The notes under the pieces: model-generated | Seen by the model: only the letters and a program-made list of their open reading frames with translations | Databases searched by the model: none | What the model was told of the DNA's origin: nothing | NCBI RefSeq assembly: GCF_058153355.1 | Contig: NZ_CM177019.1 | Direction: 5' to 3' (one strand) | DNA: 64,000 nucleotides | In this document: piece by piece, positions 6,778-28,118 of the stretch | How the letters are laid out: the number at the start of each line of letters is the position of its first letter | Position numbering within the stretch: position 1 is the stretch's first letter | Made by a program: the position numbers and the translations under genes

Positions 6778-6779
6778 AC

Positions 6780-7019
6780 TGTAATATATTAGTAAAGCTT
6801 ATTACTAAGTTTTCGAATAATAAAAAAAGCAGCATATAAACTATCTCGATATCATTTTATTTATATTCATGCGTTGCATATGAAAGTTTATGCATCACAG
6901 TAAATATCTCTCCATTCTTAGTGATCTACCTCACCTTTTAAACGCGCTTGCCGAATTTTGTTATTTACTCTGACGAAAAATTGTCACGATACACGAAAGT
7001 TTTTCACAGGCGGCGACTC
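6780..7019 (+). promoter_or_regulatory. AT-rich eut operon promoter region (expected EutR-dependent promoter)
   Basis: 240-bp AT-rich non-coding stretch directly upstream of eutS; no specific operator identified. Confidence 0.35.
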
Positions 7020-7355: not shown

Positions 7356-7367
7356 TACGAGGCATTC

Positions 7368-7847
7368 ATGGAACGAATTGCGTTTGTGGGTACCGTCGGG
7401 GCAGGAAAAACAACGTTATTTAATGCGTTGCAGGGGAATTATACCCTCGCCAGAAAAACACAGGCCGTGGAATTTAATGATAAGGGCGATATTGATACGC
7501 CGGGTGAATATTTTAGCCATCCCCGCTGGTATCACGCCTTAATTACCACGCTACAGGATGTGGACATGCTGATTTATGTCCACGGCGCGAATGACCCGGA
7601 AAGCCGATTGCCTGCCGGGTTGCTGGATATTGGTGCCAGCAAACGGCAAATCGCCGTCATCAGTAAAACGGACATGCCGGATGCTGACGTCGCAGCAACG
7701 CGAAAGTTATTGCTTGAAACTGGTTTTGAAGAGCCGATTTTCGAGCTAAACAGCCACGACCCGCAAAGCGTGCAGCAACTGGTGAATTATCTGGCATCTC
7801 TCACCGAACAGGAGGAAGCAGGTGAAAAAACTCATCACAGCGAATGA
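7368..7847 (+). CDS. eutP: EutP, putative acetate kinase / P-loop NTPase
   Basis: 159-aa ORF with Walker A motif GTVGAGKTT. Confidence 0.9.
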   Translation: MERIAFVGTVGAGKTTLFNALQGNYTLARKTQAVEFNDKGDIDTPGEYFSHPRWYHALITTLQDVDMLIYVHGANDPESRLPAGLLDIGASKRQIAVISKTDMPDADVAATRKLLLETGFEEPIFELNSHDPQSVQQLVNYLASLTEQEEAGEKTHHSE

Positions 7848-8523
7848 TATTCGTGAAGCACATGCGCGCGGCGAACAGGCAATGTCTGTGGTTCTGCGCG
7901 CCAGCATTATTACCCCGGAAGCCCGCGAAGTGGCGGACTTGCTGGGGTTTACCATCACCGAATGCACTGAATCGACGCCAGTAGCGGCATCTGTTCCCGT
8001 CAGCGTGCCTGCCGATAAAACTGAAAGCCAGCGTATCCGCGAAACCATCATCGCCCAGCTGCCGGAAGGCCAGTTTACCGAAAGCCTGGTCGCGCAGCTG
8101 ATGGAAAAAGTGATGAAGGAAAAACAGTCGCTGGAGCAGGGGGCAATGCAGCCGAGTTTTAAATCGGTGACCGGCAAAGGCGGCATCAAAGTTATTGATG
8201 GCAGCAGCGTGAAGTTTGGTCGTTTCGATGGCGCGGAACCGCACTGCGTAGGCTTGACTGATCTCGTGACCGGAGACGACGGCAGCAGCATGGCCGCCGG
8301 TTTTATGCAGTGGGAGAACGCCTTCTTCCCGTGGACCCTGAACTACGACGAAATCGACATGGTACTGGAAGGGGAGCTTCATGTTCGCCATGAAGGCGAA
8401 ACCATGATCGCTAAAGCAGGCGACGTGATGTTTATCCCGAAAGGTTCCAGCATCGAATTTGGTACGACATCCAGTGTGAAATTCCTGTATGTCGCCTGGC
8501 CGGCTAACTGGCAATCCCTATGA
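7822..8523 (+). CDS. eutQ: EutQ, cupin-fold acetate kinase
   Basis: 233-aa ORF; operon position. Confidence 0.88.
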   Translation: MKKLITANDIREAHARGEQAMSVVLRASIITPEAREVADLLGFTITECTESTPVAASVPVSVPADKTESQRIRETIIAQLPEGQFTESLVAQLMEKVMKEKQSLEQGAMQPSFKSVTGKGGIKVIDGSSVKFGRFDGAEPHCVGLTDLVTGDDGSSMAAGFMQWENAFFPWTLNYDEIDMVLEGELHVRHEGETMIAKAGDVMFIPKGSSIEFGTTSSVKFLYVAWPANWQSL

Positions 8524-9323
8524 AAGATTTCATCACCGAAGCATGGCTAAGAGCGAACCATACGCTCAGCGAAGGCGCAGAGATCCATCTCCCTGCGGAC
8601 AGTCGCCTGACGCCCTCTGCCCGGGAGTTACTGGAAAGCCGCCATCTGCGCATCAAGTTTATTGACGAGCAGGGCCGCCTGTTTGTTGACGATGAACAGC
8701 AGCAGCTACAGCCCGTTCACGTGCTGACCAGTAGTGATGAACATCCGCAGGCGTGCTGCGAACTGTGTCACCAGCCAGTGGCGAAAAAGCCGGACACGCT
8801 GACTCACCTGTCGGCGGAAAAAATGGTCGCCAAAAGCGATCCGCGCCTGGGTTTTCGCGCTGTTCTCGACAGCACCATTGCGCTGGTAGTGTGGCTGCAA
8901 ATTGAACTGACAGAACCGTGGCAGCCGTGGCTGGCAGATATCCGTTCGCGTCTTGGCAACATTATGCGTGCCGATGTGTTGGGCGAACCGCTGGCCTGCC
9001 AGGCGATTGTCGGGCTTTCTGACGAAGATCTGCATCGGCTTTCTCACCAGCCGCTGCGCTATCTTGGTCACGATCATCTGGTGCCGGAAGCCAGCCACGG
9101 ACGCGATGCGGCGTTGCTGAATCTGCTACGCACCAAAGTGCGGGAAACCGAAACCGTCGCGGCGCAGGTGTTTATTACCCGTAGTTTTGAAGTATTACGC
9201 CCGGACATCTTGCAGGCGCTGAACCGCCTTTCCAGCACGGTTTACGTGATGATGATTTTGAGCGTAACGAAGCAGCCGCTAACGGTGAAGCAGATCCAAC
9301 AACGACTGGGGGAAACGCAATGA
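8520..9323 (+). CDS. eutT: EutT, ethanolamine corrinoid adenosyltransferase
   Basis: 267-aa ORF with Cys-rich motif [10 protein letters not shown]; operon position. Confidence 0.88.
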
Positions 9324-10336
9324 TTATTGAACGTTGTCGTGAACTGGCGTTGCGAGCGCCCGCCACAGTGGTATTTCCGGATGCGTTAGATCAACGTGTG
9401 CTGAAAGCTGCGCAATATTTACATCAACAAGGTCTGGCAACGCCCATTCTGGTCGCCAATCCGTTTGAACTTCGTCAGTTTGCGCTCAGTCACGGCGTGG
9501 CGATGGACGGGCTACAGGTGATAGATCCGCATGGCAACCTCGCAATGCGGGAAGAATTTGCTCTCCGCTGGCTGGCCCGTGCGGGCGAAAAAACGCCGCC
9601 GGATGCGCTGGAAAAACTCACCGATCCGCTGATGTTCGCTGCCGCAATGGTCAGCGCCGGGACAGCGGATGTCTGTATCGCGGGCAATCTCTCTTCCACG
9701 GCAAATGTGCTGCGTGCCGGATTACGCATTATTGGCTTACAGCCAGGCTGTAAAACGCTCTCCTCCATTTTCCTGATGCTGCCACAGTACAGTGGCCCCG
9801 CATTGGGCTTTGCCGATTGCAGCGTAGTGCCACAGCCGACGGCGGCACAACTGGCGGATATCGCGCTTGCCAGCGCCGAAACCTGGCGCGCCATCACCGG
9901 AGAAGAGCCGCGCGTGGCGATGTTGTCGTTTTCCAGTAACGGCAGCGCCCGTCACCCCTGCGTTGCCAACGTCCAGCAGGCGACAGAAATCGTCCGTGAG
10001 CGCGCACCGCAGCTGGTCGTCGATGGCGAGTTGCAGTTTGACGCCGCCTTTGTGCCGGAAGTGGCGGCGCAAAAAGCGCCAGCCAGCCTGCTACAGGGCA
10101 AAGCCAATGTGATGGTTTTTCCGTCGCTGGAGGCGGGAAATATTGGCTACAAAATCGCACAACGACTTGGCGGATATCGTGCCGTCGGGCCATTGATACA
10201 AGGACTTGCCGCGCCGATGCACGATCTCTCTCGTGGTTGTAGCGTGCAGGAAATTATCGAGCTGGCGCTGGTGGCAGCTGTGCCGCGTCAGACAAAAGTG
10301 AACCGCGAAAGCAGTTTACAAACACTGGTTGAATGA
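9320..10336 (+). CDS. eutD: EutD, phosphotransacetylase
   Basis: 338-aa PTA-family ORF; operon position. Confidence 0.9.
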
Positions 10337-10374
10337 ACGGTCCCGTTCTGGACCCCTATAAAGAGGAAAACACA

Positions 10375-10668
10375 ATGGAAGCATTAGGAATGATCGAAAC
10401 CCGGGGCCTGGTTGCACTGATTGAGGCTTCTGATGCGATGGTGAAAGCTGCGCGCGTCAAACTGGTTGGTGTTAAGCAGATTGGCGGCGGCCTGTGTACT
10501 GCCATGGTTCGCGGTGATGTTGCAGCCTGTAAAGCCGCGACCGATGCCGGTGCCGCAGCGGCACAGCGTATCGGTGAACTGGTATCCGTACATGTTATTC
10601 CGCGTCCGCACGGCGACCTGGAAGAAGTTTTCCCGATCGGCCTGAAAGGCGATAGCAGCAACCTGTAA
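10375..10668 (+). CDS. eutM: EutM, major BMC shell protein
   Basis: [28 protein letters not shown]... canonical BMC-H domain, 97 aa from internal Met. Confidence 0.92.
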
Positions 10669-10675
10669 TCACCCT

Positions 10676-10716
10676 GTGTGACGTCGATTCGGGCGTCACG
10701 CTCTCTCCTTTTTCAG
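10676..10716 (+). terminator. Intra-operon hairpin plus U-rich tract between eutM and eutN (possible partial terminator/attenuator)
   Basis: gtgacg...cgtcac stem (10678-10683 / 10694-10699) followed by ctctctccttttt. Confidence 0.3.
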
Positions 10717-10773
10717 TTTACCTTCCGCGGAGGGTAGGGGAGCTTTTACCTGAAATACGCCACGGAGGCGGGT

Positions 10774-11061
10774 ATGAAACTGGCAGTCGTCACAGGACAA
10801 ATTGTTTGTACCGTACGCCATCACGGACTGGCGCATGACAAATTGCTGATGGTGGAAATGATTGATCCACAAGGTAATCCTGATGGGCAATGTGCTGTCG
10901 CCATCGACAATATTGGCGCGGGAACCGGGGAGTGGGTGTTGCTGGTGAGTGGCAGTTCCGCCCGCCAGGCGCATAAAAGCGAAACGTCACCGGTCGATCT
11001 GTGCGTAATTGGCATTGTCGATGAGGTGGTCTCTGGCGGTCAGGTAATTTTCCACAAATAA
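10774..11061 (+). CDS. eutN: EutN, BMC vertex protein
   Basis: 95-aa ORF MKLAVVTGQIVCTVRHHGL...; EutN/CcmL-like. Confidence 0.9.
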   Translation: MKLAVVTGQIVCTVRHHGLAHDKLLMVEMIDPQGNPDGQCAVAIDNIGAGTGEWVLLVSGSSARQAHKSETSPVDLCVIGIVDEVVSGGQVIFHK

Positions 11062-11072
11062 GGCAGAACATC

Positions 11073-12476
11073 ATGAATCAACAGGATATTGAACAGGTGG
11101 TGAAAGCGGTACTGCTGAAAATGCAAAGCAGTGACACGTCGCCCGCCGCCGTTCATGAGATGGGCGTTTTTGCTTCCCTGGATGACGCCGTTGCGGCGGC
11201 CAAAATTGCCCAGCAAGGGTTAAAAAGCGTGGCAATGCGCCAGTTAGCCATTGCTGCCATTCGTGAAGCAGGCGAAAAACACGCCAGAGATTTAGCGGAA
11301 CTTGCCGTCAGTGAAACGGGTATGGGCCGCGTAGAAGATAAATTTGCCAAAAACGTCGCTCAGGCACGCGGTACGCCAGGCGTTGAGTGCCTCTCTCCAC
11401 AGGTGCTGACCGGTGACAACGGCCTGACTTTAATTGAAAACGCGCCCTGGGGCGTGGTGGCTTCGGTGACGCCTTCCACTAACCCGGCGGCAACCGTAAT
11501 TAATAACGCCATCAGCCTGATTGCCGCGGGCAACAGCGTCATTTTTGCCCCGCATCCGGCGGCGAAAAAAGTCTCTCAACGGGCTATTACGTTGCTCAAC
11601 CAGGCGATTGTTGCCGCAGGCGGGCCGGAAAACTTACTGGTTACTGTGGCAAATCCAGATATCGAAACCGCGCAACGCTTATTCAAGTTTCCGGGCATCG
11701 GTCTGTTGGTGGTGACCGGCGGCGAAGCGGTAGTGGAAGCGGCGCGCAAACACACCAATAAACGTCTGATTGCCGCAGGTGCTGGCAACCCGCCGGTGGT
11801 GGTGGATGAAACCGCCGACCTCGCCCGTGCCGCTCAGTCCATCGTCAAAGGCGCTTCTTTCGATAACAACATCATTTGTGCCGATGAAAAGGTACTGATT
11901 GTTGTTGATAGCGTAGCCGATGAACTAATGCGTCTGATGGAAGGCCAGCACGCGGTGAAACTGACCGCAGAACAGGCGCAGCAGCTACAACCGGTGTTGC
12001 TGAAAAATATCGATGAGTGCGGAAAAGGCACCGTCAGCCGTGACTGGGTGGGTCGCGATGCGGCGAAAATCGCGGCGGCAATCGGCCTGAACGTGCCGCA
12101 AGAAACGCGCTTGCTGTTTATAGAAACCCCCGCAGAACATCCGTTTGCCGTGACCGAACTGATGATGCCAGTGCTGCCGGTCGTGCGCGTCGCCAACGTG
12201 GCGGATGCCATTGCGCTGGCGGTGAAACTGGAAGGCGGTTGCCACCACACGGCGGCAATGCACTCGCGCAATATCGAGAACATGAACCAAATGGCGAACG
12301 CCATTGAAACCAGTATTTTCGTTAAGAACGGACCGTGCATTGCCGGGCTGGGGCTGGGCGGGGAAGGCTGGACCACGATGACCATCACTACGCCAACCGG
12401 TGAAGGGGTAACCAGCGCGCGTACGTTTGTCCGTCTGCGTCGCTGTGTATTAGTCGATGCGTTTCGCATTGTTTAA
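11073..12476 (+). CDS. eutE: EutE, acetaldehyde dehydrogenase (acetylating)
   Basis: 467-aa aldehyde dehydrogenase family ORF. Confidence 0.92.
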   Translation: MNQQDIEQVVKAVLLKMQSSDTSPAAVHEMGVFASLDDAVAAAKIAQQGLKSVAMRQLAIAAIREAGEKHARDLAELAVSETGMGRVEDKFAKNVAQARGTPGVECLSPQVLTGDNGLTLIENAPWGVVASVTPSTNPAATVINNAISLIAAGNSVIFAPHPAAKKVSQRAITLLNQAIVAAGGPENLLVTVANPDIETAQRLFKFPGIGLLVVTGGEAVVEAARKHTNKRLIAAGAGNPPVVVDETADLARAAQSIVKGASFDNNIICADEKVLIVVDSVADELMRLMEGQHAVKLTAEQAQQLQPVLLKNIDECGKGTVSRDWVGRDAAKIAAAIGLNVPQETRLLFIETPAEHPFAVTELMMPVLPVVRVANVADAIALAVKLEGGCHHTAAMHSRNIENMNQMANAIETSIFVKNGPCIAGLGLGGEGWTTMTITTPTGEGVTSARTFVRLRRCVLVDAFRIV

Positions 12477-12486
12477 GGAGTAACCG

Positions 12487-13323
12487 ATGGCGCATGACGA
12501 ACAATGGCTTACCCCGCGGCTGCAAACGGCGGCAACGCTGTGTAACCAGACGCCCGCCGCGTCGGAATCTCCGCTGTGGTTGGGGGTGGATCTGGGCACC
12601 TGCGATGTGGTGTCGATGGTTGTCGACGGCGACGGTCAGCCGGTGGCGGTATGCCTCGACTGGGCCGATGTGGTACGCGACGGCATCGTCTGGGATTTCT
12701 TCGGTGCAGTTACGATTGTTCGTCGCCATCTCGATACCCTCGAGCAGCAATTTGGTCGCCGTTTTAGCCGTGCGGCGACTTCATTTCCACCAGGTACGGA
12801 TCCGCGTATTTCCATCAATGTGCTGGAGTCTGCCGGGCTGGAAGTGAGCCATGTGCTGGATGAGCCAACCGCAGTCGCGGATCTGCTGCAACTGGACAAC
12901 GCCGGTGTAGTGGATATTGGCGGCGGCACTACCGGAATTGCCATCGTGAAAAAGGGCAAGGTGACTTATTCAGCGGATGAAGCGACCGGCGGACATCACA
13001 TTTCTCTGACTCTCGCCGGAAATCGCCGTATTTCGCTGGAAGAGGCAGAGCAGTACAAGCGCGGTCACGGTGACGAGATTTGGCCTGCGGTGAAGCCGGT
13101 GTACGAAAAAATGGCGGACATTGTTGCCCGACATATTGAAGGGCAGGGCATTACTGATTTATGGCTGGCGGGCGGTTCCTGTATGCAACCGGGCGTGGCG
13201 GAGCTGTTTCGCAAACAATTCCCGGCGTTACAGGTGTATTTACCGCAGCACAGTTTGTTTATGACCCCACTGGCGATCGCCAGTAGCGGGCGAGAGAAAG
13301 CGGAGGGGCTATATGCAAAATGA
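12487..13323 (+). CDS. eutJ: EutJ, Hsp70-fold chaperone-like protein
   Basis: 278-aa ORF; actin/Hsp70 fold motifs (DLGT, DIGGGTT). Confidence 0.9.
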   Translation: MAHDEQWLTPRLQTAATLCNQTPAASESPLWLGVDLGTCDVVSMVVDGDGQPVAVCLDWADVVRDGIVWDFFGAVTIVRRHLDTLEQQFGRRFSRAATSFPPGTDPRISINVLESAGLEVSHVLDEPTAVADLLQLDNAGVVDIGGGTTGIAIVKKGKVTYSADEATGGHHISLTLAGNRRISLEEAEQYKRGHGDEIWPAVKPVYEKMADIVARHIEGQGITDLWLAGGSCMQPGVAELFRKQFPALQVYLPQHSLFMTPLAIASSGREKAEGLYAK

Positions 13324-14500
13324 ATTGCAGACCGCGCTCTTTCAGGCGTTCGATACCCTGAATCTGCAACGGGTAAAAACATTTAGCGTTCCACCGGTGA
13401 CGCTTTGCGGTCCGGGCGCGGTGAGCAGTTGCGGACAGCAAGCGCAAACGCGTGGGCTGAAACATCTGTTCGTGATGGCAGACAGCTTTTTGCATCAGGC
13501 AGGGATGACCGCCGGGCTGACGCGTAGCCTGGCCGTTAAAGGTATCGCCATGACGCTCTGGCCATGTCCGGTGGGCGAACCGTGCATCACTGACGTGTGT
13601 GCAGCCGTGGCGCAGTTGCGTGAATCAGGCTGTGATGGGGTGATCGCGTTTGGCGGTGGCTCGGTGCTGGATGCGGCAAAAGCCGTGGCGTTGCTGGTAA
13701 CGAATCCCGATAGCACGCTGGCAGAAATGTCAGAAACCAGCGTTCTGCAACCGCGCCTGCCGTTGATTGCCATTCCAACTACCGCCGGAACCGGCTCTGA
13801 AACCACCAATGTAACGGTGATTATCGACGCGGTGAGCGGGCGCAAGCAGGTGTTAGCACATGCCTCGTTGATGCCGGATGTGGCGATTCTCGACGCCGCG
13901 CTGACCGAAGGTGTGCCGTCGCATGTCACGGCAATGACCGGTATCGACGCGTTAACCCATGCTATTGAAGCGTACAGCGCGCTGTACGCTACACCGTTTA
14001 CCGACAGCCTAGCGATTGGTGCCATTGCGATGATTGGCAAATCGCTGCCGAAAGCGGTGGGCTACGGTCATGACCTTGCCGCGCGCGAGAGCATGTTACT
14101 GGCTTCATGTATGGCGGGAATGGCATTTTCCAGTGCCGGACTTGGGTTATGTCACGCGATGGCGCATCAGCCGGGGGCGGCGCTGCATATTCCGCACGGA
14201 CTGGCGAACGCCATGCTGCTGCCCACGGTGATGGAGTTTAACCGGATGGTCTGTCGCGAACGGTTTAGTCAGATTGGTCGGGCGCTGCGAACTAAAAAAT
14301 CAGACGATCGTGACGCTATTAACGCGGTAAGTGAGCTGATTGCGGAAGTCGGGATTGGTAAACGACTGGGCGATGTTGGTGCGGCATCTGCGCATTACGG
14401 CGCATGGGCGCAGGCCGCGCTGGAAGATATTTGTCTGCGCAGCAACCCGCGTACCGCCAGCCTGGAGCAGATTGTCGGCTTGTACGCAGCGGCGCAATAA
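13313..14500 (+). CDS. eutG: EutG, iron-containing alcohol dehydrogenase
   Basis: 395-aa Fe-ADH family ORF. Confidence 0.9.
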   Translation: MQNELQTALFQAFDTLNLQRVKTFSVPPVTLCGPGAVSSCGQQAQTRGLKHLFVMADSFLHQAGMTAGLTRSLAVKGIAMTLWPCPVGEPCITDVCAAVAQLRESGCDGVIAFGGGSVLDAAKAVALLVTNPDSTLAEMSETSVLQPRLPLIAIPTTAGTGSETTNVTVIIDAVSGRKQVLAHASLMPDVAILDAALTEGVPSHVTAMTGIDALTHAIEAYSALYATPFTDSLAIGAIAMIGKSLPKAVGYGHDLAARESMLLASCMAGMAFSSAGLGLCHAMAHQPGAALHIPHGLANAMLLPTVMEFNRMVCRERFSQIGRALRTKKSDDRDAINAVSELIAEVGIGKRLGDVGAASAHYGAWAQAALEDICLRSNPRTASLEQIVGLYAAAQ

Positions 14501-14501
14501 A

Positions 14502-14586
<85 letters not shown>

Positions 14587-14616
14587 ATAAATAACAACTA
14601 ACAGGGAGTAAAGGCG

Positions 14617-15843
14617 ATGGGAATTAACGAAATCATCATGTACATCATGATGTTCTTTATGCTGATAGCTGCCGTGGACAGGATCCTGTCGCAGTTCGGC
14701 GGTTCTGCTCGTTTCCTCGGTAAGTTCGGTAAAAGTATCGAAGGATCAGGCGGTCAGTTCGAAGAAGGCTTTATGGCAATGGGCGCTCTGGGCCTGGCGA
14801 TGGTCGGTATGACCGCGCTGGCACCGGTACTGGCTCACGTACTCGGGCCGGTAATTATCCCGGTTTACGAAATGCTCGGCGCAAACCCGTCAATGTTCGC
14901 CGGAACGCTGCTGGCGTGCGATATGGGCGGCTTCTTCCTCGCCAAAGAGCTGGCGGGCGGCGACGTAGCAGCGTGGCTATACTCTGGGTTAATTCTCGGG
15001 TCGATGATGGGGCCAACGATTGTGTTTTCCATTCCGGTGGCGCTCGGCATTATCGAACCTTCTGACCGTCGTTATCTGGCGCTCGGCGTGCTGGCGGGCA
15101 TTGTGACCATTCCGATTGGCTGTATTGCTGGTGGTCTGGTGGCTATGTACTCCGGTGTGCAGATCAACGGTCAGCCGGTGGAATTCACCTTTGCCCTGAT
15201 CCTGATGAACATGATCCCGGTACTTATCGTTGCGGTGCTGGTGGCGCTGGGGCTGAAATTCATCCCGGAAAAAATGATCAACGGCTTCCAGATCTTCGCC
15301 AAATTCCTCGTTGCATTGATCACCCTCGGTCTTGCTGCCGCGGTAGTGAAATTCCTGCTCGGTTGGGAACTGATCCCCGGTCTGGATCCGATCTTCATGG
15401 CCCCTGGCGATAAACCCGGTGAAGTGATGCGCGCCATTGAAGTTATCGGTTCTATCTCCTGCGTGCTGTTAGGGGCGTATCCGATGGTGCTGCTGCTGAC
15501 CCGCTGGTTTGAAAAACCGCTGATGAGCGTCGGTAAAGTGCTGAATATGAACAACATCGCGGCAGCCGGCATGGTGGCAACGCTTGCCAACAACATCCCG
15601 ATGTTTGGCATGATGAAGCAGATGGATACCCGCGGCAAAGTCATCAACTGTGCCTTCGCCGTTTCCGCTGCTTTCGCCCTGGGTGACCACTTAGGCTTCG
15701 CCGCTGCCAACATGAACGCCATGATCTTCCCGATGATTGTCGGCAAGTTGATCGGCGGCGTAACGGCGATTGGCGTGGCGATGATGCTGGTGCCAAAAGA
15801 AGACGCGACCGCGGCTAAAACCGAAGCGGAGGCACAATCGTGA
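14617..15843 (+). CDS. eutH: EutH, ethanolamine permease
   Basis: 408-aa polytopic membrane ORF. Confidence 0.9.
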   Translation: MGINEIIMYIMMFFMLIAAVDRILSQFGGSARFLGKFGKSIEGSGGQFEEGFMAMGALGLAMVGMTALAPVLAHVLGPVIIPVYEMLGANPSMFAGTLLACDMGGFFLAKELAGGDVAAWLYSGLILGSMMGPTIVFSIPVALGIIEPSDRRYLALGVLAGIVTIPIGCIAGGLVAMYSGVQINGQPVEFTFALILMNMIPVLIVAVLVALGLKFIPEKMINGFQIFAKFLVALITLGLAAAVVKFLLGWELIPGLDPIFMAPGDKPGEVMRAIEVIGSISCVLLGAYPMVLLLTRWFEKPLMSVGKVLNMNNIAAAGMVATLANNIPMFGMMKQMDTRGKVINCAFAVSAAFALGDHLGFAAANMNAMIFPMIVGKLIGGVTAIGVAMMLVPKEDATAAKTEAEAQS

Positions 15844-17243
15844 ACACTCGCCAGCTACTGAGCGTCGGTATCGATATCGGCACTACCACCACCCAGGTGA
15901 TCTTCTCCCACCTGGAGCTGGTTAACCGTGCGGCGGTGTCGCAGGTGCCGCGCTACGAATTCATCAAACGCGAAATTAGCTGGCAAAGCCCGGTGTTCTT
16001 TACCCCTGTCGATAAACTGGGCGGTTTAAAAGAAGCGGAACTGAAAACCTTAATCCTCGAGCAATATCAGGCTGCGGGCATTGCGCCGGAAAGCGTTGAT
16101 TCTGGTGCCATCATCATCACCGGTGAAAGCGCGAAAACCCGCAATGCTCGCCCGGCGGTGATGACGCTCTCTCAGTCGCTGGGCGATTTTGTCGTTGCCA
16201 GCGCTGGGCCGCATCTCGAATCCGTGATCGCCGGTCACGGTGCTGGGGCGCAAACCCTTTCTGAACAACGGTTATGTCGGGTACTGAATATTGACATCGG
16301 CGGTGGCACCGCGAACTACGCTTTGTTCGATGCCGGAAAAATCAGCGGCACTGCCTGCCTTAACGTCGGCGGTCGCCTGCTGGAAACCGACAGCCAGGGG
16401 CGCGTGGTTTACGCTCATAAACCGGGGCAGATGATAGTGGATGAGTGCTTTGGTGCAGGCACTGACGCCCGTTCACTGACCGGCGCGCAGCTGGTGCAGG
16501 TTACCCGGCGGATGGCGGAACTGATTGTCGAAGTGATTGACGGAACGCTCTCGCCGCTCGCGCAGGCATTGATGCAAACCGGTTTGCTGCCCGCAGGTGT
16601 TACGCCCGAAATCATTACGCTTTCTGGCGGCGTGGGCGAATGTTATCGCCACCAGCCCGCTGACCCGTTCTGTTTTGCCGATATTGGCCCGCTTCTGGCA
16701 ACGGCGCTGCATGAGCATCCTCGTCTGCGTGAGATGAACGTGCAGTTTCCAGCGCAAACCGTGCGCGCCACGGTGATTGGCGCGGGCGCACATACTCTTT
16801 CGCTCTCTGGCAGCACAATCTGGCTGGAGGGGGTACAACTGCCGCTGCGCAATTTGCCGGTGGCGATCCCAATTGATGAAACGGATCTGGTGAGTGCCTG
16901 GCAACAGGCGCTGATTCAGCTGGATCTTGATCCCAAAACTGACGCGTACGTGCTGGCGCTTCCCGCCTCGCTGCCTGTGCGTTACGCCGCGGTACTGACG
17001 GTCATCAACGCGCTGGTCGATTTCGTCGCGCGTTTTCCGAATCCGCATCCCCTGCTGGTGGTGGCCGGGCAGGACTTTGGTAAAGCTCTGGGCATGTTGT
17101 TGCGCCCACAGCTACAACAACTCCCGTTGGCAGTCATTGACGAAGTGATTGTCCGCGCGGGGGACTATATCGACATTGGTACGCCTCTTTTTGGCGGATC
17201 GGTTGTGCCGGTGACGGTGAAATCACTCGCATTTCCTTCCTGA
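15840..17243 (+). CDS. eutA: EutA, ethanolamine ammonia-lyase reactivase
   Basis: 467-aa ORF; operon position. Confidence 0.9.
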   Translation: MNTRQLLSVGIDIGTTTTQVIFSHLELVNRAAVSQVPRYEFIKREISWQSPVFFTPVDKLGGLKEAELKTLILEQYQAAGIAPESVDSGAIIITGESAKTRNARPAVMTLSQSLGDFVVASAGPHLESVIAGHGAGAQTLSEQRLCRVLNIDIGGGTANYALFDAGKISGTACLNVGGRLLETDSQGRVVYAHKPGQMIVDECFGAGTDARSLTGAQLVQVTRRMAELIVEVIDGTLSPLAQALMQTGLLPAGVTPEIITLSGGVGECYRHQPADPFCFADIGPLLATALHEHPRLREMNVQFPAQTVRATVIGAGAHTLSLSGSTIWLEGVQLPLRNLPVAIPIDETDLVSAWQQALIQLDLDPKTDAYVLALPASLPVRYAAVLTVINALVDFVARFPNPHPLLVVAGQDFGKALGMLLRPQLQQLPLAVIDEVIVRAGDYIDIGTPLFGGSVVPVTVKSLAFPS

Positions 17244-17254
17244 GGGAACGACTT

Positions 17255-18616
17255 ATGAAACTAAAGACCACATTGTTCGGCAATGTATATCAGTTTAAGG
17301 ATGTAAAAGAGGTGCTGGCTAAAGCCAACGAACTTCGTTCGGGGGATGTGCTGGCGGGCGTTGCAGCGGCAAGCTCACAGGAGCGCGTGGCGGCAAAGCA
17401 GGTGTTGTCGGAAATGACTGTAGCGGATATCCGCAATAATCCGGTGATTGCCTATGAAGATGACTGCGTGACGCGACTGATTCAGGACGACGTTAACGAA
17501 ACGGCCTACAACCAGATTAAAAACTGGAGCATCAGCGAACTGCGTGAGTATGTGCTGAGTGATGAAACCAGCGTTGGCGACATTGCTTTTACCCGCAAAG
17601 GGCTGACCTCGGAAGTGGTCGCGGCGGTAGCGAAGATTTGCTCTAACGCGGACCTGATCTACGGCGCGAAGAAAATGCCGGTAATCAAAAAGGCCAATAC
17701 AACTATTGGTATTCCGGGCACCTTCAGCGCCCGTTTGCAGCCAAACGATACCCGCGACGACGTGCAAAGTATCGCCGCGCAAATCTACGAAGGGCTTTCT
17801 TTCGGGGTGGGCGATGCGGTGATCGGCGTTAACCCGGTGACTGACGACGTGGAAAACTTAAGCCGCGTGCTGGATACCATCTATGGCGTGATCGACAAAT
17901 TCAACATTCCGACCCAGGGCTGCGTGCTGGCGCACGTTACTACCCAGATTGAAGCGATCCGTCGCGGCGCGCCGGGCGGGCTGATTTTCCAGAGCATCTG
18001 CGGCAGCGAAAAAGGGCTGAAAGAGTTTGGCGTAGAGCTGGCGATGCTCGACGAAGCGCGCGCAGTGGGCGCGGAGTTCAACCGTATCGCCGGGGAAAAC
18101 TGCCTCTACTTCGAAACCGGGCAAGGCTCGGCGCTATCCGCTGGCGCTAACTTCGGCGCTGACCAGGTGACGATGGAAGCACGTAACTATGGGCTGGCGC
18201 GTCATTATGATCCGTTTATCGTCAACACCGTGGTCGGTTTTATTGGGCCGGAGTATCTCTACAACGACCGCCAGATTATCCGTGCTGGCTTAGAAGATCA
18301 CTTTATGGGCAAGCTGAGCGGCATCTCTATGGGCTGTGACTGCTGCTACACCAACCACGCTGACGCTGACCAGAACCTCAACGAAAACCTGATGATCCTG
18401 CTCGCCACCGCAGGCTGCAACTACATCATGGGGATGCCGCTGGGTGATGACATCATGCTCAACTACCAGACCACCGCATTCCACGATACCGCCACTGTGC
18501 GTCAGTTACTCAACCTGCGCCCGTCACCGGAGTTTGAACGCTGGCTGGAAAGCATGGGCATTATGGCAAACGGTCGCCTGACCAAACGGGCGGGCGATCC
18601 GTCACTGTTCTTCTGA
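17255..18616 (+). CDS. eutB: EutB, ethanolamine ammonia-lyase large subunit
   Basis: 453-aa ORF, follows eutA directly. Confidence 0.93.
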   Translation: MKLKTTLFGNVYQFKDVKEVLAKANELRSGDVLAGVAAASSQERVAAKQVLSEMTVADIRNNPVIAYEDDCVTRLIQDDVNETAYNQIKNWSISELREYVLSDETSVGDIAFTRKGLTSEVVAAVAKICSNADLIYGAKKMPVIKKANTTIGIPGTFSARLQPNDTRDDVQSIAAQIYEGLSFGVGDAVIGVNPVTDDVENLSRVLDTIYGVIDKFNIPTQGCVLAHVTTQIEAIRRGAPGGLIFQSICGSEKGLKEFGVELAMLDEARAVGAEFNRIAGENCLYFETGQGSALSAGANFGADQVTMEARNYGLARHYDPFIVNTVVGFIGPEYLYNDRQIIRAGLEDHFMGKLSGISMGCDCCYTNHADADQNLNENLMILLATAGCNYIMGMPLGDDIMLNYQTTAFHDTATVRQLLNLRPSPEFERWLESMGIMANGRLTKRAGDPSLFF

Positions 18617-18636
18617 TGACGCGGAGATAACACATC

Positions 18637-19524
18637 ATGGATCAAAAACAGATTGAAGAAATTGTACGCAGCGTGATGGCGTCAATGGGACAAGCGGCCC
18701 CCGCGCCGTCAGAAGCAAAATGCGCCACTACCACCTGTGCAGCACCGGTGACCTCGGAAAGCTGCGCGCTGGATTTAGGTTCCGCGGAAGCAAAAGCGTG
18801 GATTGGCATTGAAAACCCGCATCGCGCAGACGTATTAACAGAACTGCGCCGCAGCACCGTGGCTCGCGTCTGTACCGGTCGTGCTGGTCCGCGTCCGCGT
18901 ACCCAGGCGTTGTTGCGTTTCCTGGCCGATCACTCTCGTTCGAAAGACACCGTACTGAAAGAAGTGCCGGAAGAGTGGGTGAAAGCGCAGGGCTTGCTGG
19001 AGGTCCGCTCTGAAATTAGCGACAAAAATCTCTATCTGACTCGCCCGGATATGGGCCGCCGCTTGTGTGCAGAGGCTGTTGAAGCGCTGAAAGCGCAGTG
19101 TGTTGCTAATCCGGACGTACAGGTGGTTATTTCCGATGGTCTATCTACTGATGCGATCACCGTGAACTATGAAGAGATTCTGCCACCGCTGATGGCGGGC
19201 CTGAAACAGGCCGGGTTGAAAGTCGGCACACCGTTCTTTGTGCGTTACGGTCGCGTGAAGATTGAAGATCAGATTGGCGAACTTCTTGGCGCGAAAGTGG
19301 TGATCCTGCTGGTGGGTGAACGTCCGGGGTTGGGGCAGTCAGAAAGTCTCTCCTGCTACGCCGTTTACTCGCCGCGTATGGTAACCACCGTTGAGGCCGA
19401 TCGCACCTGTATCTCTAACATTCACCAGGGCGGCACGCCGCCGGTTGAAGCCGCAGCCGTCATTGTGGATTTGGCGAAACGTATGCTGGAGCAGAAAGCA
19501 TCCGGCATCAACATGACCCGATAA
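18637..19524 (+). CDS. eutC: EutC, ethanolamine ammonia-lyase small subunit
   Basis: 295-aa ORF. Confidence 0.92.
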
Positions 19525-19533
19525 GGAGGCATC

Positions 19534-20193
19534 ATGCCAGCTTTAGATTTGATTCGACCGTCGGTAACCGCCATGCGGGTGATAGCCTCTGTTAACGCCG
19601 AATTTGCGCGTGAACTGAAATTGCCGCCGCATATTCGTAGCCTCGGGCTGATTTCTGCTGATTCCGATGACGTCACCTACATTGCGGCTGACGAAGCGAC
19701 CAAGCAGGCGATGGTTGAAGTCGTGTATGGTCGCTCGCTGTATGCGGGAGCTGCACACGGGCCGTCACCGACTGCCGGTGAAGTGCTGATTATGCTCGGG
19801 GGGCCAAACCCGGCGGAAGTGCGTGCCGGTCTGGATGCGATGGTTGCGCATATTGAAAATGGCGCTGCTTTCCAGTGGGCTAATGATGCAGAAAACACAG
19901 CCTTCCTGGCGCATGTCGTTTCGCGTACCGGCTCTTATCTCTCATCAACCGCCGGGATCACGCTTGGCGATCCGCTGGCGTATCTGGTGGCACCGCCGCT
20001 GGAAGCGACTTACGGCATTGATGCAGCGTTGAAATCTGCCGACGTGCAACTGGTGACCTATGTACCGCCACCGTCTGAAACCAACTACTCGGCAGCATTT
20101 TTAACCGGTAGCCAGGCCGCGTGTAAAGCAGCCTGTAACGCCTTTACCGATGCAGTGCTGGAAATCGCGCGTAATCCAATCCAGCGTGCGTAA
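19534..20193 (+). CDS. eutL: EutL, BMC shell protein (tandem BMC domain)
   Basis: 219-aa ORF. Confidence 0.9.
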
Positions 20194-20205
20194 CGGAGGT
20201 TGCCG

Positions 20206-20706
20206 ATGATCAATGCACTGGGATTGCTGGAAGTGGACGGCATGGTCGCCGCGATAGATGCAGCTGATGCCATGCTCAAAGCAGCTAACGTTCGTCTGCT
20301 CAGTCACGAAGTGCTTGACCCTGGTCGCCTAACGCTGGTGGTGGAAGGCGATCTGGCGGCGTGTCGTGCGGCGCTGGACGCAGGTTGTGCTGCCGCGATG
20401 CGTACCGGGCGTGTCATCAGCCGTAAGGAGATCGGTCGGCCAGACGATGACACCCAGTGGCTGGTTACTGGCTTTAACCGCCAGCCGAAGCAACCCGTAA
20501 AGGAACCCGACGCGCCAGTTATCGTCGCGGAATCTGCTGACGAGTTGTTGGCGCTGTTAACATCAGTACGTCAGGGAATGACGGCAGGAGAAGTGGCTGC
20601 CCACTTTGGCTGGCCGCTGGAAAAAGCCAGAAATGCGCTCGAACAGCTCTTTTCTGCCGGGACGTTACGTAAACGCAGTAGTCGTTATCGTCTCAAGCCC
20701 CATTAA
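20206..20706 (+). CDS. eutK: EutK, BMC shell protein with C-terminal nucleic-acid-binding-like domain
   Basis: MINALGLLEVDGMVAAIDAADAMLKAANV...; 166 aa from internal Met. Confidence 0.88.
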   Translation: MINALGLLEVDGMVAAIDAADAMLKAANVRLLSHEVLDPGRLTLVVEGDLAACRAALDAGCAAAMRTGRVISRKEIGRPDDDTQWLVTGFNRQPKQPVKEPDAPVIVAESADELLALLTSVRQGMTAGEVAAHFGWPLEKARNALEQLFSAGTLRKRSSRYRLKPH

Positions 20707-20751
20707 CCTGTCGGAGGTGCCGGGTGTCCTACAACACCCGGCATTAACATC

Positions 20752-21804
20752 ATGAAAAAGACCCGTACAGCTAATTTGCACCATCTTTATCATGAACCCT
20801 TACCCGAAAACCTGAAGCTAACGCCGAAGGTCGAAGTGGATAATGTTCATCAACGGCAAACAACGGATGTCTATGAACATGCTTTGACGATTACCGCCTG
20901 GCAGCAGATTTACGATCAGCTGCATCCGGGCAAATTTCATGGTGAATTTACGGAAATTCTGCTCGATGATATTCAGGTTTTCCGTGAATACACGGGGCTG
21001 GCGCTGCGTCAGTCGTGCCTGGTCTGGCCGAATTCGTTCTGGTTTGGCATTCCGGCGACGCGCGGTGAGCAGGGATTTATCGGTTCGCAATGTCTGGGAA
21101 GCGCAGAAATAGCGACGCGCCCTGGTGGAACCGAGTTTGAATTAAGTACGCCGGACGATTACACGATCCTTGGCGTGGTGCTTTCTGAAGATGTCATCAC
21201 CCGGCAGGCTAACTTTTTGCATAACCCGGAAAGGGTGCTGCATATGTTACGTAACCAGTCGGCGCTGGAAGTGAAAGAGCAGCATAAAGCCGCGCTGTGG
21301 GGCTTTGTCCAACAGGCTCTGGCGACATTTTGCGAGAACCCGGAAAATCTCCATCAGCCTGCAGTGCGAAAAGTGCTGGGGGATAATTTGCTAATGGCGA
21401 TGGGGGCGATGCTGGAAGAAGCGCAGCCAATGGTGACGGTGGAAAGCATCAGTCATCAGAGTTACCGTCGGTTGCTTTCCCGCGCCCGTGAATATGTGCT
21501 GGAAAACATGTCCGAACCGGTGACGGTGCTGGACTTGTGTAATCAACTGCACGTCAGTCGCCGCACCTTGCAAAACGCATTTCACGCTATTTTGGGCATT
21601 GGCCCGAATGCGTGGCTGAAACGCATTCGCCTGAACGCCGTGCGCCGTGAACTGATTAGCCCGTGGTCGCAAAGTATGACGGTAAAAGACGCCGCCATGC
21701 AGTGGGGATTCTGGCATCTTGGGCAGTTTGCCACGGATTATCAGCAATTGTTTGCAGAAAAGCCTTCACTGACGCTGCATCAGCGGATGCAGGAACTGGA
21801 GTGA
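20752..21804 (+). CDS. eutR: EutR, AraC-family activator of the eut operon
   Basis: 350-aa ORF with C-terminal AraC-type HTH. Confidence 0.9.
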
Positions 21805-21880
21805 GGGTGAGGGCCGGATGAGGATGGTGTTTGATCCGGTCCATAGTGAAGTTACAAATTACGTTGAATTGCTATGTATT

Positions 21881-22198
21881 TTATTGCCCAACGGGATAGG
21901 CGATAAACAAACCGACAATTGTCAAAATACACGCCAGCAGGAATACCAACATACAATTTACGCGCTTTCGCGAAATTTTAAATAAATAGCAAAATAGTGT
22001 TGTTACCACGATCACTACCGGGATAGTCATAAAATTAATAACGATGAGTGCTATCAATCCAAAACTTGCTCCTCCACCGTGGGGAATAAAAATGTGTTCT
22101 TCAAAATAAACTTCTATAGCAAATGCCAGCACACATCCCAGAAAACTCATATCCAGATGAGGGTGCCATTTACTTTCTTTATGTGATGTGTCTGACAT
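21881..22198 (-). CDS. hypothetical small membrane protein (about 3 predicted TM helices)
   Basis: 105-aa ORF with hydrophobic segments (FLGCVLAFAI, LIALIVINFMTIPVVIVVTTLF, LVFLLACILTIVGLFIAY); AT-rich; co-directional with and 40 bp downstream of the 420-aa ORF. Confidence 0.55.
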   Translation of the reverse strand: MSDTSHKESKWHPHLDMSFLGCVLAFAIEVYFEEHIFIPHGGGASFGLIALIVINFMTIPVVIVVTTLFCYLFKISRKRVNCMLVFLLACILTIVGLFIAYPVGQ

Positions 22199-22238
22199 TC
22201 TTAAATGCTCCCGTGAGCAAACTGGCGCAAAATAATTT

Positions 22239-23501
22239 CTAAGATTGCTGATAAGACGTCGCTGTTGTCCGGCACTCCGGGCAGATAAACGCGTAAATTA
22301 TCCCTTCGCCGTATTGTTCAATATCGGCATAATCCAGTTGCGCAAGAAACATCATTGTGTGGGAACATTGCGGACAGAGAGGATATTCCGCGTCCTGAAT
22401 CCAGGTTGGATGCCCGCCAAGTTGCGAGAAAGAGACAGGTAAAAATGGGTCTGCGGCAAATAACGGTGACCTAAGGTTTCCCTGTCTCATGCTGTTTACA
22501 GGGAGTCGACGCCATTCCGATACATCATCCGGCAGCCAGGCAGGCGGGATATTTTTTGCAGACAAATGAGCGTTACCCTTTGAGTCCATGTAGCCGAAAA
22601 TGGTGCTGTAGGCGGTGCAACATTCGCAAGTCACGACGCGAAAACTGCCGTTATCGCTAAGACCCGTTGCCTTCAGGTCAACGTCGAAAAGATTTGTTAG
22701 TGGCAATGCGCAATTTGGACAGGTATCGTTGCGTTCATCAACAACACGCAAAGCTTCGCAAGACCCGGTGCTTTTCATCTCCAGATGAAAACATTGAGGA
22801 AAATAGAGATTACGCCTTTGATCTTCAGCGGTTAACTCCCAACCGGCCTCATGCGCATATTCTTCAGGCTCGATGTAAAGGGAGCTGCGCCACGGCGGTG
22901 GGCTATTGCGCCAGTGGGCAAAACGTTCAACGACAACGTCATCCCCAATCCATGCCAGACATTGCAGAATACAATTTCTGTTTTCTGCATCATCCTCAAC
23001 CCGTTCTAACAGCCTGTCGCGTACATCTGTGGGGGCGCGGTGGAAAGGCATATAAGAATCATTGTCCAAATCATCGTAAGAGATCCATTCTCTGAAATAG
23101 GCATTCAGATTCGCCTGGGTAAATGCCGCCAGACAAAGGCAAATCTCCTGAGCGAGCTTATATTCACCAGATGCAAAGCGTTCTGTGGCGTAATCAGCCA
23201 TCAGCTGCGCTTGATCGGTGGTCAGTTGTTGATACAGGGCATCTGTGGGAACGGGGCAGGGAGTCCAGTCGATTAACGCATCGAATTTCCGCGGTTGGTG
23301 AATTAATTTCAGCATGACAACCGGATCGCTTAACCCTGCAAACGCATTCACGATCTTTTTGTTTTTCTTGATATATTCGTCGTGCTCACGTTGCTGTTGG
23401 GCCTGCTCGCAGGGCATGCAGTATCCGTTAGTACGCGCTGCGGTTTCCGGAAGAATGGTTGATATACAAGCGGGGCTTTTACAGGGAATACGGTGAGTCA
23501 T
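22239..23501 (-). CDS. hypothetical Cys-rich protein: N-terminal zinc-ribbon-like motif and C-terminal DUF1963 (YwqG)-like region
   Basis: 420-aa ORF; four CxxC motifs (CMPC, CPNC, CPQC, CPEC); C-terminus GGHPTWIQ...CPQCSHTMMFLAQLD...YAFICPEC resembles the DUF1963/YwqG signature as remembered. To my recollection not present between eutR and hemF in K-12. Confidence 0.6.
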   Translation of the reverse strand: MTHRIPCKSPACISTILPETAARTNGYCMPCEQAQQQREHDEYIKKNKKIVNAFAGLSDPVVMLKLIHQPRKFDALIDWTPCPVPTDALYQQLTTDQAQLMADYATERFASGEYKLAQEICLCLAAFTQANLNAYFREWISYDDLDNDSYMPFHRAPTDVRDRLLERVEDDAENRNCILQCLAWIGDDVVVERFAHWRNSPPPWRSSLYIEPEEYAHEAGWELTAEDQRRNLYFPQCFHLEMKSTGSCEALRVVDERNDTCPNCALPLTNLFDVDLKATGLSDNGSFRVVTCECCTAYSTIFGYMDSKGNAHLSAKNIPPAWLPDDVSEWRRLPVNSMRQGNLRSPLFAADPFLPVSFSQLGGHPTWIQDAEYPLCPQCSHTMMFLAQLDYADIEQYGEGIIYAFICPECRTTATSYQQS

Positions 23502-23639
23502 AGAGGCGCTCCTTGCCTGAGGATATTAAGTCGAAAGAGATTATTATTAGATATTAGGGTGTCACTATGGCACACAAATTAAAACAGCATTAATTTTATG
23601 CCACCAACCGAGGGTTATTTTTCTTTTATTTTCATGATA

Positions 23640-24542
<903 letters not shown>

Positions 24543-25412
24543 TTACCGCTTTCTCGAGTGTGCTTTCTGGTTGTCAAACCAGTGAAAATAACTGATCACG
24601 CCTTCGGCAATCGCTGTGGCGATTTTCTGGCGAAATGCCGCCGTGCCTAACAGCCGCTCTTCTTCCGGGTTGGTGATAAATGAGGTTTCCACCAGCACCG
24701 AAGGAACCGACGGCGATTTCAACACCACAAACGCGGCTTGTTCGGTGTTGCGGCTGTGCAGTTTATGCACCGGCTTAATCTTCTTCAGAATATGCGAGCC
24801 GAGCGTCAGGCTGTTTTTAATAGTATCGGTTTGCACCAGATCAAACAGCACTTGCTGCAATAGGTGATCCTTGTCAGTCGCCTTTTTACCGGCAACTTCA
24901 TCGGCGCGGTTTTCGCGTTCAGACAGGTATTTCGCCATTGCGCTACTTGCCCCACGGTTAGAGAGAGCAAATACCGAAGCACCGGCAGCTTTCGGGTTGG
25001 TAAAGCCATCGGCATGAATTGACATAAACAGATCTGCGCCATGTTTATGGGCGATTTCAACGCGATCGTACAGCGGGATAAACGTATCGCCAGAACGCGT
25101 TAAACGCGCATCAATGCCATGATTACGCAAAATGGAACGGACGTTTTTGGCAATCGCCAGCACCACATGTTTTTCTTTCGATCCATTGCGACCAATCGCT
25201 CCGGTATCAATTCCGCCGTGGCCTGGATCGAGAACAACGACACGTTTGCCGCCGCTTTTTTTGGCTTTCGGCTTACTGTGTCCGTTACTGGTTTTTAAAG
25301 GTTCTTCTTTGGCGATGGCTTGCGACATTCCTGACAACGTCAGGGCAGCCAATCCGGCTTTCAGCACCTGGCGGCGCGAAGTGAGTGTTTTTAGTGGTTT
25401 AAAAGTGCTCAT
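24543..25412 (-). CDS. amiA: N-acetylmuramoyl-L-alanine amidase
   Basis: 289-aa ORF with Tat-like signal (SRRQVLKAGLAAL) and amidase_3 domain. Confidence 0.92.
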   Translation of the reverse strand: MSTFKPLKTLTSRRQVLKAGLAALTLSGMSQAIAKEEPLKTSNGHSKPKAKKSGGKRVVVLDPGHGGIDTGAIGRNGSKEKHVVLAIAKNVRSILRNHGIDARLTRSGDTFIPLYDRVEIAHKHGADLFMSIHADGFTNPKAAGASVFALSNRGASSAMAKYLSERENRADEVAGKKATDKDHLLQQVLFDLVQTDTIKNSLTLGSHILKKIKPVHKLHSRNTEQAAFVVLKSPSVPSVLVETSFITNPEEERLLGTAAFRQKIATAIAEGVISYFHWFDNQKAHSRKR

Positions 25413-25625
25413 ACGGCCTGAGTTGTAATAATAAAGTTCCAGATGTTATATCGTATCGCGTAATCCGTTACGACCGTTTGCTGTTGAGAATTGTTTTACT
25501 TTTCATTTCAATAGTTGACAACTCCCCATTATGCCACTTTTTCAACCGATTTTCGTCAGATATTGGCTAATTCGACCGTTCACGCCATAATCAGCCTTTT
25601 AACCCGCAAAAAGGTAACGAATACC

Positions 25626-26051
25626 ATGGAGATACGCGTATTTCGCCAGGAAGATTTCGAAGAGGTCATCACCCTTTGGGAGCGTTGCGACTTGCTGCGT
25701 CCGTGGAACGATCCGGAAATGGACATCGAGCGCAAAATGAACCATGACGTCAGTCTGTTTCTGGTCGCTGAGGTAAACGGTGAAGTGGTCGGAACGGTGA
25801 TGGGCGGTTATGACGGGCATCGCGGGTCTGCTTATTATCTTGGCGTGCATCCAGAGTTTCGTGGGCGTGGGATTGCTAATGCGTTGCTTAATCGGCTGGA
25901 GAAAAAGCTGATTGCTCGCGGCTGCCCGAAAATTCAGATCAATGTGCCGGAAGATAACGACATGGTGCTCGGAATGTATGAACGCCTTGGATATGAACAC
26001 GCCGACGTGCTGAGTCTGGGCAAGCGTTTGATTGAAGATGAAGAGTACTGA
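25626..26051 (+). CDS. ypeA: GNAT-family N-acetyltransferase
   Basis: [24 protein letters not shown]...; 141 aa from internal Met of the track ORF. Confidence 0.88.
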
Positions 26052-26487
26052 GTTTCATCCTGCCCATTATGATGCGCACGGACGCCTGCGTTTACCTTTT
26101 CTCTTCTGGCTTGTGCTGTTGCTTCAGGCGCGAACCTGGGTGCTGTTTGTCATTGCCGGTGCGTCGCGCGAGCAGGGTACTGCGCTGCTAAATCTGTTTT
26201 ATCCCGATCACGATAATTTCTGGCTGGGGTTGATTCCCGGTATTCCGGCGGTGCTGGCGTTTTTGCTGAGTGGTCGGCGGGCTTCATTTCCCCGTATCTG
26301 GCATGTGCTCTATTTTCTGTTGCTGTTGGCGCAGGTGGTTTTACTTTGCTGGCAACCGTGGCTGTGGCTGAACGGTGAATCCGTTAGCGGTATCGGTCTG
26401 GCGCTGGTAGTGGCGGATATTGTGGCGTTAATCTGGCTGCTGACCAATCGACGTTTACGCGCTTGTTTTAATGAAGAAAAAGAATAA
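26032..26487 (+). CDS. yfeZ: inner membrane protein YfeZ
   Basis: 151-aa hydrophobic ORF; synteny; exact start uncertain. Confidence 0.8.
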
Positions 26488-26547
26488 CGGCACTTTTTGG
26501 TGAATTTGCACTCCAAGCAACGTTATTGAATAACCAAAGGAAGTGAC

Positions 26548-27123
26548 ATGAAATCGCTGCGTTTAATGTTATGCGCTATGCCGTTGATGCTGACCGGCTG
26601 TTCAACGATGTCGTCAGTTAACTGGTCTGCCGCTAATCCGTGGAACTGGTTTGGGTCGTCCACCAAAGTGAGCGAGCAGGGCGTGGGTGAATTAACGGCG
26701 TCCACACCACTGCAAGAACAAGCTATTGCCGATGCGCTTGATGGTGATTATCGCCTGCGCAGCGGAATGAAAACCGCGAACGGCAACGTGGTGCGCTTTT
26801 TTGAATTGATGAAAGGCGACAACGTGGCGATGGTAATTAACGGCGATCAGGGCACGATCAGCCGCATTGATGTGCTGGATAGCGATATTCCTGCTGACAC
26901 CGGTGTTAAAATCGGTACACCGTTTAGCGACCTTTACAGCAAAGCATTTGGCAATTGCCAAAAAGCTGATGGTGATGATAATCGTGCCGTCGAATGTAAA
27001 GCTGAAGGCAGTCAACATATTAGCTACCAGTTCAGCGGGGAATGGAGTGGTCCTGAAGGGTTAATGCCTTCGGACGATACCTTGAAAAACTGGAAAGTCA
27101 GTAAAATTATCTGGCGGCGTTAA
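26548..27123 (+). CDS. yfeY: lipoprotein YfeY
   Basis: 191-aa ORF with lipoprotein signal peptide (LMLTGCS). Confidence 0.88.
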   Translation: MKSLRLMLCAMPLMLTGCSTMSSVNWSAANPWNWFGSSTKVSEQGVGELTASTPLQEQAIADALDGDYRLRSGMKTANGNVVRFFELMKGDNVAMVINGDQGTISRIDVLDSDIPADTGVKIGTPFSDLYSKAFGNCQKADGDDNRAVECKAEGSQHISYQFSGEWSGPEGLMPSDDTLKNWKVSKIIWRR

Positions 27124-27134
27124 TTTGCGTCTGA

Positions 27135-28118
<984 letters not shown>

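Follow-up and report, generated by a model that had tools for sequence, protein, structure and literature searches.

In Escherichia coli K-12 MG1655 (NC_000913.3), the eut operon for ethanolamine use is interrupted by the cryptic prophage CPZ-55, which is annotated in RefSeq at positions 2558691 to 2565480 (6,790 bp) and whose genes (intZ and yffL to yffS) all run in the opposite direction to eut. The prophage has been reported to integrate right behind the stop codon of eutA, accompanied by a duplication of 8 bp, and to be present in 8% of 638 genomes (PMC6379469). The site has been named a "prophage insertion hot spot," and a different prophage resides there in one UPEC strain (PMC6652756). 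Strain BW25113, which bears the prophage, is unable to obtain nitrogen from ethanolamine, and scarless deletion of the prophage restores this ability, from which the authors concluded that it is essential for the eut operon to be uninterrupted; strain W3110 did not grow on ethanolamine as the sole source of carbon and nitrogen (PMC11334477). In a separate report, BW25113 neither grew on ethanolamine plus B12 nor formed microcompartments, and its eutB was not induced although eutS and eutR responded (PMC7617246).

We analyzed a 64,000-nt stretch of DNA (contig NZ_CM177019.1 of RefSeq assembly GCF_058153355.1), referred to here as the window, which spans tktB/talA/maeB to past ligA and gltX on an E. 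coli-type chromosome. With a probability of roughly 95%, we read positions 7020 to 21804 as an intact, ancestral-type enterobacterial eut operon and the junction between eutA and eutB, at 17236 to 17254, as an unoccupied attachment site of a CPZ-55-type integrase. The open reading frames and NCBIfam scans placed 17 genes, eutSPQTDMNEJGHABCLKR, in canonical order on the plus strand (Table 1). Each of the 17 products matched an NCBIfam model over its full length with a score above the curated cut-off. The matching models are gene-specific equivalogs for 14 of the genes and subfamily models bearing the gene's name for eutS and eutB, and eutD and eutE passed generic subfamily models alone (phosphotransacetylase, 405.8 versus a cut-off of 310; aldehyde dehydrogenase, 737.2 versus 403). 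The set thus includes the signature enzyme, EutB plus EutC, with its reactivase EutA, all present at full length; the five shell proteins EutS, EutM, EutN, EutL, and EutK; and EutP, EutQ, EutT, EutD, EutE, EutJ, EutG, and EutH together with the regulator EutR.

Table 1. Coordinates of the eut genes, the eutA-eutB junction, and neighboring features in the window. Bit scores are followed by the curated cut-off of the NCBIfam model.
Feature	Position	Strand	Evidence or remark
maeB-eutS intergenic region	6728-7019	+	maeB terminator-like hairpin at 6745-6772; main eut promoter expected here
eutS, microcompartment shell protein, 111 aa	7020-7355	+	NF012012, 246 bits (123)
eutP, 159 aa	7368-7847	+	NF012011, 347 bits (258)
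eutQ, 233 aa, overlaps eutP by 26 nt	7822-8523	+	NF012001, 497 bits (193)
eutT, corrinoid adenosyltransferase, 267 aa	8520-9323	+	NF011595, 562 bits (226)
eutD, phosphotransacetylase, 338 aa	9320-10336	+	NF007233, 406 bits (310)
eutM, shell protein, 97 aa	10375-10668	+	NF012018, 212 bits (133)
eutN, shell vertex protein, 95 aa	10774-11061	+	NF011992, 210 bits (118)
eutE, acetaldehyde dehydrogenase, 467 aa	11073-12476	+	NF011927, 737 bits (403)
eutJ, 278 aa	12487-13323	+	NF011660, 399 bits (182)
eutG, alcohol dehydrogenase, 395 aa	13313-14500	+	NF011998, 887 bits (556)
eutG-eutH spacer, single ~100-bp REP/BIME unit	14501-14616	+	Sequence comparison
eutH, ethanolamine permease, 408 aa	14617-15843	+	NF011665, 873 bits (574)
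eutA, ethanolamine ammonia-lyase reactivase, 467 aa, GTG start	15840-17243	+	NF007991, 1069 bits (799)
8-bp core CTTCCTGA	17236-17243	+	Single copy; takes in the eutA stop codon
eutA-eutB spacer GGGAACGACTT	17244-17254	+	11 nt
eutB, ethanolamine ammonia-lyase large subunit, 453 aa	17255-18616	+	NF011649, 664 bits (554)
eutC, ethanolamine ammonia-lyase small subunit, 295 aa	18637-19524	+	NF003971, 338 bits (230)
eutL, shell protein, 219 aa	19534-20193	+	NF011934, 402 bits (198)
eutK, shell protein, 166 aa	20206-20706	+	NF012010, 362 bits (218)
eutR, AraC-type operon activator, 350 aa	20752-21804	+	NF007522, 783 bits (319)
Hypothetical protein, 105 aa	21881-22198	-	
Protein with marginal DUF1963 match, 420 aa	22239-23501	-	Pfam

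Compared gene by gene with K-12 MG1655, each of the 17 genes has the length of its orthologue, with 95.6 to 100% amino acid identity and 93.5 to 99% nucleotide identity, and no internal stops, frameshifts, or premature stops were found in any of them. EutS, EutM, and EutN are identical to their K-12 counterparts, and EutB (99.8% identical), EutK, and EutH differ by less than 1%. The amino acid differences amount to ∼1 to 4% in 11 of the 17 proteins, EutA among the compared proteins being 98.3% identical and EutP the most divergent, at 4.4%. The last ∼115 nt before eutS are also identical to K-12; the main eut promoter is expected in the intergenic region upstream of eutS, going by the position described in the Salmonella and E. 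coli eut literature. Gene set, order, and orientation agree with those of the 17-gene operon (EUT1-type) in Salmonella enterica LT2 and in wild-type E. coli, where eutA and eutB are likewise 11 nt apart, and the flanking genes, maeB at one end and hemF/amiA at the other, are those of other E. coli strains.

At most junctions, neighboring eut genes overlap by up to 26 nt or lie no more than 20 nt apart. Longer gaps separate eutD from eutM (38 nt), eutK from eutR (45 nt), eutM from eutN (105 nt), and eutG from eutH (116 nt), and in K-12, too, these four gaps are the longer ones. An earlier note on this DNA, made from the letters and the open reading frames alone, had described all 17 eut genes in one orientation, with short or overlapping junctions and with eutB starting 11 bp after eutA. 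The gene content and orientation are borne out by the open reading frames, the NCBIfam scores, and the equal K-12 lengths; the coordinates given there for the spacer, 17244 to 17254, are exact; and the hidden frameshifts that the note named as grounds for doubt are absent from the 17 genes. The description of the junctions holds for most pairs and fails for the four listed above. Apart from allelic differences, the operon departs from the wild-type arrangement in having one REP/BIME unit between eutG and eutH where other strains have two to four. The spacer holds one copy in the window and in E. coli Z0117EC0005 (116 nt), two in K-12 (216 nt), three in N96 (315 nt), and four in E203449 (416 nt).

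At the junction itself, the eutA stop codon TGA (17241 to 17243) and the eutB start codon, which begins at 17255, are separated by the spacer alone, and the window holds no integrase or prophage DNA between the two genes. The sequence CTTCCTGA occurs once in the window and is followed directly by the spacer and the eutB ATG, whereas in K-12 it is present as an 8-bp duplication flanking CPZ-55 at both ends, and the prophage adjoins the eutA stop codon at one end and, at the other, the same 11-nt spacer that precedes eutB. Over 81 nt around the junction, the window matches the K-12 sequence with CPZ-55 removed, an identity that points to homology rather than a chance match. A BLAST alignment of the window with K-12 breaks exactly at 17243 and skips the 6.8-kb prophage, leaving a 23-nt overlap at 17221 to 17243, which would reflect the resemblance of the far end of the prophage, duplicated 8-bp core included, to the 3′ end of eutA. 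The K-12 strains MG1655 and BW25113 thus share with the window 17 equal gene lengths and identical flanks of the insertion point and differ from it in carrying CPZ-55. The prophage that the earlier note placed between eutA and eutB of K-12 is therefore the annotated CPZ-55, as both the junction comparison and the alignment with MG1655 agree, and on this comparison CTTCCTGA at 17236 to 17243 marks its unoccupied attachment site. A Shine-Dalgarno-like GAGGGA (17242 to 17247) overlaps the eutA stop codon, 7 nt ahead of the eutB start codon. The junction showed no strong terminator-like site, and an internal terminator or promoter there was rejected as a candidate, the weak consensus matches being no more numerous than expected from shuffled sequences.

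The frequency of occupied and empty sites was obtained from 5,426 complete E. coli genomes, with the junction counted as contiguous when one match covered at least 80% of a 2-kb query centered on it. The junction was contiguous in 4,964 of the genomes (∼91%) and the query was split or partial in ∼459, such that about 8.5% lack a contiguous junction. Full CPZ-55 (≥99% identity) is present in 213 of the complete genomes, and every genome among the matches listed is a K-12-type laboratory strain. Approximately 200 more genomes match CPZ-55 at the integrase end alone, with 80 to 90% identity, and in both of the two that were inspected (E203449 and HS-01), integrase-like DNA lies at the same site, beside eutB. 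In the wild human isolate E203449, an island of ∼10 kb (20178 to 30359 of the E203449 locus) separates eutB from eutA and contains an intZ-like integrase, small hypothetical genes, a truncated pyridoxal-dependent decarboxylase, gadC, murI, and IS1. The islands of E203449 and the UPEC strain U71 occupy the same chromosomal target that is empty in the window; their integrase gene is ∼85% identical to that of CPZ-55 at the DNA level, but their cargo differs.

The contiguous junction extends beyond E. coli. An exact match to a 26-mer spanning the junction was found in 32 species representatives from Citrobacter, Klebsiella, Salmonella, Escherichia, Pluralibacter, and Pseudocitrobacter. The 11-nt spacing is kept in all eight loci picked by EutA protein alone (Salmonella enterica, E. 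albertii, Intestinirhabdus, an Enterobacteriaceae isolate, and four metagenomic contigs), and the spacer is invariant among them except for one C/T position. The site is likewise empty in the nearest complete genome, Z0117EC0005. Because the junction is contiguous in ∼91% of E. coli genomes and in other Enterobacteriaceae, its uninterrupted state in the window is expected and not in itself notable; on this distribution, K-12 is the exception, and the uninterrupted junction is both ancestral and prevalent. The earlier note's reading of the locus as the intact arrangement is thus supported with a shift of emphasis, K-12 being the oddity and the intact state the usual one. An intact eut operon with an empty prophage site is ordinary and already documented in published work. 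The finding adds no new biology, and its value is one of annotation, the K-12 reference being atypical at the eut locus.

The expected consequences for ethanolamine use follow from work on Salmonella and other E. coli strains. In the presence of ethanolamine and B12, EutR would activate the promoter upstream of eutS, and transcription from it would pass through eutA into eutBCLKR, across a junction that consists of a single 8-bp core, CTTCCTGA, and the 11-nt spacer bearing the putative eutB ribosome-binding site. Such read-through would supply the lyase, two further shell proteins, and extra EutR; in this strain, ethanolamine plus B12 should therefore switch on the lyase along with eutR and the shell genes downstream. 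In K-12, the oppositely oriented 6.8-kb prophage would cut eutBCLKR off from the promoter upstream of eutS and thereby abolish ethanolamine use. E. coli does not synthesize B12 de novo, and the phenotype hangs on supplied cobalamin. When cobalamin is given, ethanolamine should serve the strain as a nitrogen source at the least; we infer EutR-mediated induction, microcompartments, and growth on ethanolamine from other E. coli strains. Use of ethanolamine as the sole carbon source varies between strains. The relevance of the arrangement for predicting ethanolamine catabolism, also put forward in the earlier note, agrees with the published prophage-deletion and eutB-induction experiments in BW25113. 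By its sequence, the strain counts as genetically equipped for microcompartment-dependent ethanolamine catabolism, which the literature ties to fitness in the gut and urinary tract, and metabolic models built on a K-12 template should not transfer the Eut-negative phenotype of K-12 to it.

The window is 95 to 97% identical to K-12, and its best matches among the 5,426 complete E. coli genomes reach 98 to 98.9% (stretches of 19 to 25 kb searched). An origin outside E. coli was considered and rejected, given that representatives of other Escherichia species are more distant (92 to 96%) and that positions 1156 to 37000 run colinear with the genome of E. coli Z0117EC0005. Identity to Z0117EC0005 per kilobase forms a mosaic of 96.6 to 100%, with 100% at 21 to 23 kb, 99 to 99.8% in several blocks, and 96.6 to 98% from eutE to eutL (12 to 20 kb). 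Much of the eut operon thus lies on a segment more divergent than its surroundings, a pattern that would be expected from homologous recombination. We treat the window as a divergent E. coli lineage.

The empty site could have been restored rather than never occupied, if a CPZ-55-like element had once been present and then excised precisely. The site is a recurrent integration target, as judged from the genomes without a contiguous junction (∼8.5%) and from the use of the site by at least two different elements, and integrase-mediated excision would regenerate exactly the junction sequence of the window. Precise excision is traceless, and the sequence reads the same under either history. However, neither a remnant integrase nor a partial duplicate of the core was found beside the site in the window, and a site that was never occupied is the simpler reading of a junction shared across several genera; prior occupancy is judged very unlikely. 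Either history leaves the locus with an identical structure today and an identical predicted function. In another rival reading, the operon is intact in appearance yet non-working, owing to a regulatory defect or to missense mutations hidden from gene-length checks. The divergence of this lineage, at 93.5 to 99% nucleotide identity to the K-12 eut genes and 1 to 4% amino acid differences in 11 of the 17 proteins, offers room for such changes. Against this, all of the Eut proteins score far above the cut-offs curated for their families along their whole length, the 115 nt nearest to eutS are identical to K-12, relatives of the same lineage have the same eut structure, and the mosaic of 96.6 to 100% identity to the nearest genome is normal for E. 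coli recombination and not a sign of decay. A non-working operon is judged very unlikely, and an intact operon with an unoccupied attachment site remains our reading of the locus.

The strong nucleotide conservation at the junction raises the separate question of whether a functional RNA or DNA element is present beyond the constraints of coding and ribosome binding. Among 34 sequences (33 loci and the window), all of which contain the 26-mer, the junction includes an invariant run of 60 nt. In the 21 of this 26-mer-picked set with ±1,150 nt of flank (20 loci and the window), third-codon-position identity rises to 0.88 to 0.99 over ∼17165 to 17330, versus a background of 0.55 to 0.70. The eight loci picked by EutA protein alone, which were used to remove the bias of selecting on the 26-mer, retain a weaker peak (0.77 to 0.82 versus 0.50 to 0.55). 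Near-invariant third positions and the survival of the peak would favor an additional element, but an internal control in the same loci gave equal conservation at other gene starts, with third-position identities of 0.83 at the eutH start, 0.82 at the eutB/eutC junction, and 0.85 at eutA/eutB, as expected of translation-initiation regions. A stable RNA structure at the junction was rejected, since folding of 17150 to 17345 was not unusually stable on either strand (z = 0.07 and −1.6) and no Rfam family matched the junction. The conservation peak thus probably represents ordinary translation-initiation constraint, and a separate functional element appears improbable. The more specific proposal that the stretch of ∼120 to 170 nt (∼17165 to 17330) acts at the RNA level, on the EutA:EutBC ratio or on mRNA processing, with its conservation possibly drawing integrases, is decidedly improbable. 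The CPZ-55 attachment core does lie inside this highly conserved stretch, a location that fits the general habit of integrases to target conserved sequence.

Outside the operon, the window differs from the wild-type eut region by a rare 1.8-kb insert of two genes just downstream of eutR (Table 1). The insert (21808 to 23639; 1,832 bp) lies between eutR and hemF and is not in K-12. It is present in 28 of the 5,426 complete E. coli genomes, in 9 of them with at least 99% identity, including at least 3 that are 100% identical, and a version with ∼92% identity is present in EPEC E2348/69. A defense role for the two genes was considered and rejected, as PADLOC returned no matches in the insert and Pfam gave just the marginal DUF1963 match.

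Mobile elements are also present at a distance from eut. The window opens inside IS621 of the IS110 family (1 to 1176; 97.5 to 99.4% identical to annotated IS621 copies), with an apparently full-length transposase open reading frame on the minus strand; the best-matching genomes lack IS621 at this position beside tktB. IS621 is an element known for bridge-RNA-guided recombination. A 448-aa open reading frame on the minus strand (41244 to 42590) lies between an open reading frame at 40359 to 41210 and ptsI (43241 to 44968), presumably between pdxK and crr, going by K-12 gene order. It is taken to be the IS4-like transposase annotated in the region. Some complete E. coli genomes, among them M15 and FDAARGOS_1249, cover this region at 100%, IS4 included, whereas it is missing from the closest relatives. 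Two tRNA clusters, of four genes (57568 to 57962, minus strand) and two genes (60661 to 60848, plus strand), look ordinary for this region of the chromosome.
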